Shown in pieces: positions 54,447 through 56,469 of a stretch of DNA of 64,000 nucleotides. A model generated the notes under the pieces. It searched no databases. It worked only from the letters and a program-made list of their open reading frames with translations, and was not told where the DNA came from. Source of the DNA: an uncultured Methanomicrobiales archaeon (GTDB lineage: Archaea > Halobacteriota > Methanomicrobia > Methanomicrobiales > Methanospirillaceae); assembly GCA_963697895.1 (NCBI GenBank), contig OY969100.1, forward strand, positions 1,440,001-1,504,000, in the 5' to 3' direction. How positions within the stretch are numbered: the first letter of the stretch is position 1; each line of letters starts with the position of its first letter. Position numbers and translations under genes: made by a program.

Positions 54447-54590
54447 TCCCTATCTTTTTTTAAGAATCACAAGAATCGTATCAATCATCTATTGTAGGAA
54501 TTAATCTCTTGCAGAGTTATCGAATTCTATTCAGGCTGGAAGAGTTCCTTAAAAGGGGCGTTTATGATATGTTCTGAAAAAATAAGTAAA

Positions 54591-54663
54591 CGCCCAGGTC
54601 GGAATTCGAATCCGAGTCGTCTGCGTGACAGGCAGACATGATGGGCCGCTACACTACCTGGGC
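54591..54663 (-). tRNA. tRNA-Asp(GTC)
   Basis: Reverse complement GCCCAGG...TCTGC-CT-GTC-AC-GCAGA...TTCGAAT...CCTGGGCG. Confidence 0.95.
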
Positions 54664-54683
54664 ACCGGTATTCCTGCAAGTTA

Positions 54684-54790
54684 TCCCGCCTCCCGGAGTC
54701 GAACCGGGGACATCGCGGTAGCCGCGCAGTTGCCTCGAATCGGCAAACCATACTACAGCCGCGCACTCTACCAGGCTGAGTTAAGGCGGG
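54684..54790 (-). tRNA. tRNA-Tyr(GTA) with 33-nt intron at 37/38 (intron 54720-54752)
   Basis: CCCGCCT/AGGCGGG acceptor, CGCGG-CT-GTA-G[intron]A-CCGCG, bulge-helix-bulge-like pairing. Confidence 0.93.
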
Positions 54791-54866
54791 GTATTGCGCT
54801 CTTAATATTGGAATATACAGTTATTAAACGTATCGTATTTCTGCCACGGGCTCCGCTACCCGGTGC

Positions 54867-54880
54867 TTTTTTTATAGTAT
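54867..54880 (+). promoter_or_regulatory. TATA box for a probable leaderless transcript starting near ATG 54900
   Basis: TTTATA at 54871-54876, centred about 26-27 nt upstream of ATG 54900. Confidence 0.6.
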
Positions 54881-54899
54881 GAGCGCACTAGTTGTGAGT

Positions 54900-54944
54900 A
54901 TGTCTCGCACCAACAGGGAAGCGGGCGGTTGTTTTCTTTGTTGA
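54900..54944 (+). other. 14-codon upstream ORF MSRTNREAGGCFLC* overlapping the leuA frame; candidate +1 frameshift leader
   Basis: ATG TCT CGC ACC AAC AGG GAA GCG GGC GGT TGT TTT CTT TGT TGA; leuA is in the +1 frame. Confidence 0.6.
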
Positions 54945-56469
54945 AGGCAACGGCAAGAGAGAAGTAACTGTTTTCGACACCACTCTCCGGGATGGTGAAC
55001 AGACACCGGGAATTTCATTTAAATTCGATCAGAAACTTGAGATTGCCCGCCAGTTATCGGAGATCGGTGTGCATGTGATCGAAGCCGGGTTTCCAGCATC
55101 ATCAGAAGGAGAGCGGGAGACGGTGGCGGCAGTTGCCGGACTCGGGCTGAATGCCCAGATTTGTGGTCTCGCTCGGTCGAAGAAAGAGGATGTGGATGCA
55201 TGCCTGGACTGCGATGTGGACCTGGTACATGTATTCATTCCGACCTCTGATGTACAGCGGGTACACACGATCAACAAGTCCCGGGACGAAGTTCTCGAAA
55301 TCACGGGGGAGATGATCACGTATGTCCGTGACCACAGCCCCAGATGCATGTTCTCAGCCATGGATGCGACCCGTACGGACCCCGATTTCCTTATGCAGGT
55401 CCTGAAAACGGCGACCGAAGCGGGTGCCACCATCCTGAACATTCCCGACACCGTGGGGGTCATTACTCCTTCTGGAATGAAACGCCTGATATCTATGATT
55501 ACGAAGGAGATTTCATGTCCGATCGATGTGCATTGCCATAACGACTTCGGTCTGGCAGTCGCGAACACCATAAGTGCCGTGGAATCCGGTGCCTCACAGG
55601 TCCAGGTGACGGTAAACGGTCTCGGTGAACGGGCAGGGAATGCCGATCTTGCACAGACGGTGATGGTGCTCGAATCCATCTTCGGCCTGACAACCGGAAT
55701 CAGGAAGGAGCGCCTCGTGGAGACCTCACGTCTGATATCCCGGTATTCCGGAATCGGTATTCCGCCAATTCAACCGATCGTGGGAGATAATGCATTTTCG
55801 CACGAAAGCGGGATCCACTCGCATGGGGTCATCGCGTGTGCCGCAACATTCGAACCGGGTATCATGACACCGGAGATGGTGGGTCACCGCCGGAAGCTTA
55901 CCCTCGGGAAACACGTCGGAAGGCACGCGGTGAGGCAGATGCTGGGAGAAGCACATATCAGTCCGAACGATGCAGAACTGGATTCCATCGTCGAGAAGGT
56001 AAAGTCCATCGCGCTAAAGGGAAAAAGGGTGACCGATGCAGACTTATACGAGATTGCGGACAGTGTAACGGGCACCGGAAATGGCGGACGGGTTATCGTG
56101 CTCGAGGACCTCGCGATCATGACCGGAAACCATGTGATTCCGACCGCGAGCGTGAAGGCACAGGTAAACGGGAAAGAGCAGGTATATTCGAGCACGGGAA
56201 ACGGACCGGTGGATGCGGCATTGAATGCCATCCTGGGCCTGGTCCCGACCCGTATCCTGTTGAAGGAGTTTAGCATAGAAGCAATTTCGGGCGGATCGGA
56301 TGCGATTGGTCATGTAACCATCGCGGTCGAGGATGAACAGGGACGCGTCTTCGATGCGAGTGCATCAGGGGATGATATCGTCCTTGCATCGGCAGAAGCG
56401 ATGATCAATGCGATCAATCTGTTGCACCGGCTGCAAACAAAAAATTATTCCGAAAATACCGAACGATAA
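54900..56469 (+). CDS. leuA: 2-isopropylmalate synthase (about 522 aa if entered from ATG 54900 via a +1 shift)
   Basis: FDTTLRDGEQTPG at about 54973 lies upstream of the first in-frame start (GTG 55069); FSAMDATRT, HCHNDFG, GLGERAGNA, C-terminal regulatory domain GNGPVDA. Confidence 0.88.

Follow-up and report, generated by a model that had tools for sequence, protein, structure and literature searches.

The leuA gene of an uncultured Methanomicrobiales archaeon, encoding 2-isopropylmalate synthase, was analyzed in a stretch of 64,000 nucleotides (nt) of contig OY969100.1, which is referred to as the window. We propose, at a probability of about 0.7, that expression of leuA depends on a conserved, programmed +1 ribosomal frameshift, which would be tuned by the charged tRNA of the pathway end product. 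The enzyme is encoded in the +1 frame relative to a short leader open reading frame (ORF), which holds a YTT codon, a leucine codon and a nearby stop. The same layout was found throughout the order and in several other families of the phylum, and in the isoleucine-pathway paralogue cimA an isoleucine codon stands at the place of the leucine codon.

Frame arrangement and conservation of leuA in Methanomicrobiales

In the window, the leuA frame is closed upstream by a TGA (Table 1; coordinates are positions in the window, forward strand, unless another contig is named). Behind this TGA the frame reads VCLAPTGKRAVVFFVEGNGKREVTVFDTTLRDGEQ and contains no ATG, GTG or TTG up to the GTG at 55069, which lies 31 codons beyond the D of the catalytic motif (D at 54976), nor any near-cognate start better than AAG. 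The ATG at 54900 sits one base "behind" the leuA frame and opens a leader ending TGT-TTT-CTT-TGT-TGA, in which the CTT at 54936-54938 is the sole branched-chain codon. If TTTC (54933-54936) is read as a single step, the fusion MSRTNREAGGCFFVEGNGKREVTVFDTTLRDGEQ results. Past this site the ORF is intact and 62-81% identical to its orthologues. The first-pass annotation had described the leuA frame, the TATA box, the ATG, the upstream ORF and its CTT in these terms, and each of its sequence statements was confirmed on re-reading.

Table 1. Sequence features of the leuA locus in the window
Feature	Position	Strand	Remark
TATA box TTTATA	54871..54876	+	29 nt 5' of ATG 54900; read from sequence
TGA shutting the leuA frame upstream	54895..54897	+	read from sequence
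0-frame leader ORF MSRTNREAGGCFLC, 14 codons plus stop	54900..54944	+	ATG 54900 is the predicted true initiation codon
G-rich tract GCGGGCGG	54921..54928	+	weak match to 16S rRNA 3' end; 4 nt before P-site codon
Proposed shift site TTT CTT	54933..54938	+	conserved YTT-Leu pair
0-frame stop TGA	54942..54944	+	proposed to terminate ribosomes that do not shift
leuA coding sequence, +1 frame, TTC 54934 to stop	54934..56469	+	2-isopropylmalate synthase
DTTLRDGEQ catalytic motif	54976..55002	+	within the leuA +1-frame coding sequence

The identity of the gene was evaluated by comparison with LeuA family features. The product scored 680.9 bits against NF002085 (cut-off 517) and displayed both the DTTLRDGEQ motif and the C-terminal regulatory domain of the family. 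Precomputed Pfam assignments of the leuA cluster were PF22617, PF00682 and PF08502, and its only source name was 2-isopropylmalate synthase. Members of the cimA group were named D- or (R)-citramalate synthase by JGI and CimA in one NCBI record. The PDB scores leaned toward the same naming; NCBIfam or PDB alone is not decisive, and the assignment as LeuA or CimA is thus the one that source names and PDB scores together suggest.

An extra base introduced by an assembly error, or present in a dead gene, could also have broken an ordinary leuA, and the first-pass annotation had itself raised sequencing error as a caveat. Such a reading would fit a 2.09-Mb genome that consists of a single contig with a completeness of 93.85%, has at least one non-conserved frame break (in the ilvB-like gene described below) and whose database call of leuA is truncated to 466 amino acids. 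However, contigs from four metagenome runs of four studies, one of which may be the source sample of the genome, spanned 54762-55031 or more with 0 gaps and no indel near the site, and agreed base for base across it. They showed no substitution within 54886-54956 and many within 54841-54865. The caveat is therefore refuted at this site, and the frame arrangement is not an assembly error. Together with the intact remainder of the ORF and the presence of the same arrangement in all orthologues analyzed, this leaves next to no credence for an error or a dead gene.

The closest named relatives of the genome are Methanoregulaceae and Methanolinea metagenome-assembled genomes (MAGs) of the order Methanomicrobiales. 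A leuA orthologue was identified in 39 of 41 genomes, including that of the window, which gave 30 loci, and a scan of named genomes added 80 (loci are given L-numbers, and the families of the compared genomes f-numbers). Three of these 110 same-order loci were dropped, L147 starting inside the gene and L004 and L075 having less than 100 nt of upstream sequence; L004 was readable nonetheless and carries the site. The layout was defined as an ATG in a frame needing a +1 shift, a YTT codon, a leucine codon, a nearby stop and the enzyme in the +1 frame. It was present in 107 of the 107 loci analyzed (106 scored, L148 read by eye), and these orthologues thus bear out the out-of-frame ATG, shift site and nearby stop whose conservation the first-pass annotation had suggested checking. 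Three further family-f4 genomes, read separately, also had the leuA layout, and all six families of the order were covered. A recurrence in every same-order orthologue analyzed is far more than chance would be expected to give.

The composition of the site varied within narrow limits among the 106 scored loci. The P codon was CTT in 71 and TTT in 35, and the A-site codon was CTT in 100 and CTC in six. The out-of-frame ATG was present in all of them, 10-13 codons before the leucine codon in 95, and the 0-frame stop followed the sensor codon by 1-2 codons in 99. Six Methanoregula loci forming one subclade have CAT at the P position, with the YTT-Leu pair one codon further on (CAT CTT CTC) and the stop moved accordingly. 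A canonical enzyme-frame start was missing 5' of the site in 38 loci and anywhere before the D in 24, the window included.

Codon usage at the site pointed to a constraint on the nucleotides themselves. TTCT was invariant across 95 distinct leuA sequences, and the first enzyme-frame Phe codon, which overlaps the P and A codons, was TTC in 93 of 93 distinct sequences. In the same 93 sequences the codon after it was TTC (63), TTT (24) or TCC (six), and the conserved Phe just before the D was TTT in 54 and TTC in 39; all remaining Phe codons of these genes were TTC 889 times and TTT 270 times. Because the C of this TTC is fixed, the 0 frame reads CTT (Leu) where it would otherwise read TTT. Judged by these counts, the fixation of TTC is a constraint that coding cannot explain.

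The record of L148, a contig of a named MAG, has a normal leader and site, but its frame is broken by one additional base some 25 nt ahead of the catalytic motif. This extra base looks like an assembly error in that record.

Putative sensor codons in leuA of other families and in cimA

Forty leuA loci from other families of the phylum, with 51-59% identity, were compared. The layout was identified in 25 of them, from eight families (f7, f9, f10, f11, f14, f18, f19 and f24). The typical spelling was GAGGGATCG(Y) TTT TTA C, which reads ...R-D-R-F-L in the 0 frame and G-I-V/A-F-Y in the enzyme frame. The sensor codon was TTA in 18 loci, CTT in four, CTA in two and TTG in one. The enzyme-frame residue overlapping the sensor was Y, F or W outside the order and S in the CTC group within it. 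Recalling leuA orthologues, the first-pass annotation had expected a Phe-Phe pair at this position; this held for Methanomicrobiales and one other family, while Phe-Tyr, Phe-Trp or Phe-Ser was found elsewhere. In family f14 the 0-frame ATG lies just five codons before the leucine codon. Nineteen of the 25 loci had no canonical enzyme-frame start 5' of the site, while all 15 loci without the layout start ordinarily in frame. Family f16 displays a transition, with the slippery codon replaced (GTT CTA) and an ATG ATG or GTG in frame.

Altogether, the sensor codon was Leu in 132 and Ile in none of the 132 leuA loci with the layout, which belong to 14 families, and was spelled CTT, CTC, CTA, TTA or TTG. 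The P codon was TTT or CTT in 131 of 131 scored loci, and with a YTT P codon in 132 of 132 layout loci and a 0-frame stop close behind, the +1 slip site put forward in the first-pass annotation gained support. So did its view of CTT as a putative leucine sensor.

Two further observations were made in these families. In three f14 loci (L033, L034 and L036) a palindrome TGTGA-TT-TCACA lies about 5-20 nt before the leader ATG, over the predicted leuA transcription start, and could be a candidate transcription-factor binding site. In three f10 loci (L068, L072 and L049) the leader stop TAA is located 4 nt past an in-frame leuA ATG (GAG AAT GAA TAA), and termination and re-initiation could operate there alongside or in place of frameshifting.

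Citramalate synthase catalyzes the first committed step to isoleucine in methanogens. The genome encodes a second synthase with 41% identity, cimA (locus L002), whose coding sequence lies outside the window at G000:C1:471983-473467 on the minus strand (to 473492 with the leader). Its frame opens with a TGA, reads QIVLFSEKIRFFDTTLRDGEQ and has no start codon. The leader is ATG ACA GAT CGT TTT ATT CTC TGA (MTDRFIL and stop); its TTT is followed by an Ile codon, and the enzyme is encoded in the +1 frame. The same-order cimA set comprised 31 loci, L169 being dropped for its short upstream sequence. The pair was Phe-Ile in 30 of them, with L168 and L174 read from peptides and not from the automated site finder, and Phe-Leu in one (L177). 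The P codon was TTT in 30 of the 31, and 13 had no canonical enzyme-frame start. Outside the order an Ile codon occupied the site in 17 of 24 loci, and the remaining seven start conventionally. These 17 comprised five from f14, three from f10, two from f24 and one from f16 (TTT ATT or TTT ATC), as well as six from f7 (ATT ATT, one read by eye). The cimA pattern thus spans 11 families, with Ile as the sensor in 47 of the 48 layout loci and Leu in one.

It could be argued that the shift occurs constitutively at a fixed rate, and that the Leu and Ile codons are mere by-products of the enzyme-frame residues. Two facts that favor such a fixed rate also count against leucine sensing: an enzyme-frame Phe-Tyr (TTY TAY) makes the 0-frame YTA codon Leu by necessity, and CTT is not rare, accounting for 17.8% of the Leu codons of the genome. 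However, the sensor of leuA stays Leu over its five spellings while the enzyme-frame residue varies among F, Y, W and S, and Ile occupies the corresponding position in the paralogue of the isoleucine pathway. Tandem sensor codons are Leu-Leu in leuA only and Ile-Ile in cimA only. In cimA, TTT ATT forces the enzyme-frame Leu codon TTA, which makes up 4.3% of the Leu codons in this genome, and this codon, as well as the TTC of leuA, is fixed against codon preference. A constitutive shift is therefore regarded as unlikely, and a shift reporting the end product is preferred.

The cimA gene is followed by an ilvB-like gene (G000:C1:470361-471999, minus strand, outside the window) that overlaps its end. 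Because the genes overlap, the two probably form an operon. The ilvB-like gene is split into two frames near 471086 in this genome; among 13 relatives looked at, ten had a locus long enough, and nine of these show a single uninterrupted frame of about 500 codons. This frame break is not conserved, whereas the leuA arrangement is, and it probably stems from an assembly error or a recent mutation. In the three family-f4 genomes G027, G037 and G032 (L206, L207 and L177), leuA and cimA were adjacent and divergently transcribed.

Start signals, decoding at the site and alternative readings

When 124 distinct leuA upstream regions were aligned on the 0-frame ATG, a TATA box appeared at -30..-22 with the consensus TTTATATAA. 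The A+T content was at least 0.88 at -30..-25, and G at -2 and T at -1 were found in 68% and 72% of the regions, respectively. In archaeal promoters, a TATA box spacing of -30..-22 is expected when transcription starts at the ATG. Because of this spacing, the leuA transcript is predicted to begin at or within about 3 nt of the 0-frame ATG and to be leaderless, in support of the leaderless start that the first-pass annotation had placed at ATG 54900. In cimA the TATA box is located at -45..-36, and a GGTGG or GGTGA at -12..-8 of the 0-frame ATG is, by its sequence and position, a normal ribosome-binding site. Four control genes of the same genome, namely an aksA-like paralogue, ilvB, the ilvB-like gene and ilvC, were each found to begin with an ordinary in-frame ATG.

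The following sequence of events is proposed. Transcription from or beside ATG 54900 would yield a leaderless leuA mRNA, on which the ribosome would read 11 codons in the 0 frame and arrive at TGT-TTT-CTT. With tRNA-Phe on UUU in the P site, CUU (Leu) would be shown in the A site. If charged tRNA-Leu arrives fast, Leu and Cys would be read, the ribosome would stop at TGA 54942 and no enzyme would be made. If charged tRNA-Leu is scarce, the ribosome would pause and tRNA-Phe would slip from UUU to UUC. The slip would improve pairing, with a G.U wobble between UUU and the GAA anticodon giving way to a G-C pair on UUC. After it, F-V-E-G...DTTLRDGEQ would be read and LeuA made, the outcome being end-product feedback at the level of decoding. 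In cimA the same device would use the Ile codon as its sensor. A slip one codon later, at CTT_T, was also considered, and the comparison with cimA favors TTT_C as the site. The sequences show the layout, its conservation and the agreement between sensor codon and pathway; a leaderless start, the precise point of slipping and a role of aminoacyl-tRNA are inferred. CUU, UUU and AUU are each wobble-read by one single-copy G34 tRNA.

A stimulatory element may lie just upstream. In this genome the 3' end of the 16S rRNA is ...GGAUCACCUCCU. For 64 distinct sequences, the median energy of pairing between this end and the 16 nt directly 5' of the P codon was -8.6 kcal/mol, compared with -4.0 kcal/mol for 5375 background windows from the same genes; 39% of the former and 3.4% of the latter reached -10 kcal/mol or below. 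In other lineages, GAGGGAUCG and GGGGGAUCG pair with the 16S 3' end over 8 bp, and family f9 pairs with the same partner through another word, AGGUGGUC. The complementarity was strong in Methanoregula, f7, f9, f10 and f14, and the G-rich tract probably aids the shift in many lineages, possibly as a Shine-Dalgarno-like stimulator. The G run itself (GGG_R) was considered as a general slip site and rejected; the window, L018, L133, f5 and f9 cannot re-pair there.

Several further points weigh against the proposed sensing frameshift. A canonical enzyme-frame start (TTG, ATG) lies 5-6 codons before the site in 68 of the 106 scored same-order leuA loci, and ordinary initiation may be possible in the species concerned. 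This is the start chosen by gene callers, in 96 of 120 database proteins. The cimA loci of family f7 read ATT ATT, which allows no +1 re-pairing by tRNA-Ile, and the cimA-like leader of L177 (G032, family f4) has TTT CTT (Leu), the sole exception among the 48. The rRNA-complementary tract is weak in the window (-6.8 kcal/mol) and absent in f5. Conserved RNA structure was not found, the consensus fold of 22 orthologues having -1.98 kcal/mol and six weak pairs. Finally, the related sequences counted here are not independent, and the counts overstate significance.

A regulatory leader ORF without any frameshift was also weighed, in which LeuA would have its own start (TTG, ATG or CTG five codons before the site, or ATY) or be re-initiated after the leader stop. 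In 96 distinct sequences, the enzyme-frame codon five before the TTC was TTG in 38, CTG in 22 and ATG in 13, and ATY stood two codons further on in 79. In families f10, f11 and f18, an in-frame ATG is found close to the leader stop, 8-9 codons ahead of the D. The main internal argument for this alternative, and a further point against frameshifting, is that the changes just 5' of the site (GGN ATY GTY) resemble synonymous variation of the enzyme frame and not of the 0 frame; we infer that the rRNA-complementary tract probably accounts for it. However, 24 same-order loci, that of the window among them, contain no ATG, GTG or TTG 5' of the catalytic motif, and the locus of the window has neither ATY nor CTG there. 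A TGA often stands immediately 5' of the enzyme-frame GGG ATC in families f7 and f14. This alternative cannot serve the window, f5 or the TGA-preceded families. Moreover, the promoter places the 0-frame ATG at the mRNA 5' end, and stalling at the Leu codon would hide the candidate starts under the ribosome and lower LeuA in leucine shortage, which is the wrong sign. A leader ORF without a shift is thus considered quite unlikely, and the +1 frameshift remains our preferred explanation.

Slippage of RNA polymerase on a T run could drop one U in some transcripts and put ATG 54900 in frame. The window has T4, and several other families have T5-T6. As a rule, polymerase slippage needs runs of about seven or more, and the 71 same-order loci (of 106) that read CTT CTT have T runs no longer than two, so that this origin appears highly improbable. 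A leader-peptide transcription attenuator was rejected as well, as no conserved alternative hairpins were found, the leader overlaps the enzyme ORF and the window has no separate start.

Wider scans did not extend the set. A genome-wide scan for a short ORF followed by a long startless +1 frame gave 193 candidates, and the seven inspected were gene ends or noise. With a TATA box added as a requirement, a stricter but still crude scan of the genome yielded leuA, one unconvincing match and no further member. In the six RNA runs listed, at most 0.06 of the sampled sequence words were present. An Rfam scan of 54500-55300 (E up to 1) detected two tRNAs only and no T-box or other known leader. One of them is tRNA-Asp (54590-54664); the second, beside it at 54684-54790 on the minus strand, scored 48.7 bits and was missed by ARAGORN. 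It is 107 nt long and, because of this length, probably contains an intron.

Significance and comparison with known systems

Many methanogen leuA and cimA genes are mis-annotated in public databases, as truncated genes, with arbitrary starts or as pseudogenes. Among 120 leuA-group database proteins listed, the N-terminus lies 19-20 residues before the D in 96, four residues before it in 15 and elsewhere in seven, and two are truncated, including that of the window. The database call of the genome's cimA is truncated to 405 amino acids. The 0-frame N-terminus was found in none of the 120, which reflects gene calling and not biology. Such errors can lower completeness scores and distort metabolic reconstructions.

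A broader proposal, which we favor with somewhat less confidence than the frameshift in leuA itself, is that matched "hungry-codon" +1 frameshift switches, with Leu in leuA and Ile in cimA, govern the first committed enzymes of the two pathways. They would represent the first natural amino-acid feedback by recoding and the first conserved cellular +1 frameshift of archaea, as an archaeal counterpart of attenuation and T-boxes older than the split of several methanogen classes. If frameshift efficiency indeed reads charged tRNA, a new regulatory logic for biosynthetic genes would have been built from prfB/Ty1 parts. The sensing model predicts that swapping the Leu and Ile codons would swap specificity.

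Attenuators and T-boxes have, to our knowledge, not been described for archaea, and little appears to be known of how these organisms adjust amino-acid synthesis to supply. Full-text searches, with most subscription journals and supplements outside their reach, found no paper on leuA or cimA frameshifting or on amino-acid-sensing frameshifts in archaea. The accessible text of a review (PMC5009743, 2016) gave no match for isopropylmalate, leuA or citramalate. According to a 2021 review (PMC8211752), only one archaeal cellular frameshift has been shown, the -1 event of fucA1 in Saccharolobus solfataricus; magnesium chelatase is listed as a suggested case, and haloviruses supply others. Like the shift proposed for leuA, that of fucA1 concerns a cellular gene of an archaeon; as described there, it differs in being a -1 shift at A_AAA_AAT, in being limited to a few strains and in having no known sensor (PMC8211752). 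Antizyme (OAZ), as covered in the same review, resembles the proposed system in that a metabolite pathway regulates itself through +1 frameshift efficiency, but it is eukaryotic, senses polyamines at a stop codon and uses RNA and nascent-peptide elements (PMC8211752).

Enterobacterial leu/ilv attenuation shares with leuA a leader ORF with end-product codons, which reads charged tRNA by pausing. There, alternative hairpins control whether transcription terminates, and translation of the structural gene is started separately. In contrast, the leader of leuA, in which no conserved structure was found, overlaps the enzyme ORF and would form one polypeptide with the enzyme.

The yeast elements Ty1, ABP140 and EST3 are similar in that tRNA-Leu on CUU slips +1 next to a slow sense codon in the A site (CUU-AGG-C), in dependence on tRNA supply. 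There, however, slow decoding stems from the low abundance of the tRNA, the codon bears no relation to the gene product and no metabolic feedback is involved.

The closest architecture appears to be that of prfB, encoding bacterial release factor 2, which regulates itself by a +1 frameshift. In both genes a short 0-frame ORF is followed by the product in the +1 frame, a CUU-type P codon can re-pair after a +1 slip and, for leuA in many lineages, an rRNA-complementary tract lies a few bases upstream. In both, as proposed here for leuA, a slow A-site codon would report the level of the product and non-shifted ribosomes would stop soon. The A-site codon of prfB is a stop and its sensor is the release factor, whereas that of leuA is a sense codon for the end product, with charged tRNA as the putative sensor. 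leuA further differs in its archaeal host, in the spacing of the G-rich tract (2-6 nt versus 3) and in a site located 5-17 codons from the start. Within frameshifting of the prfB/Ty1 type, the sensor and its biological use would thus be what is new in leuA and cimA.

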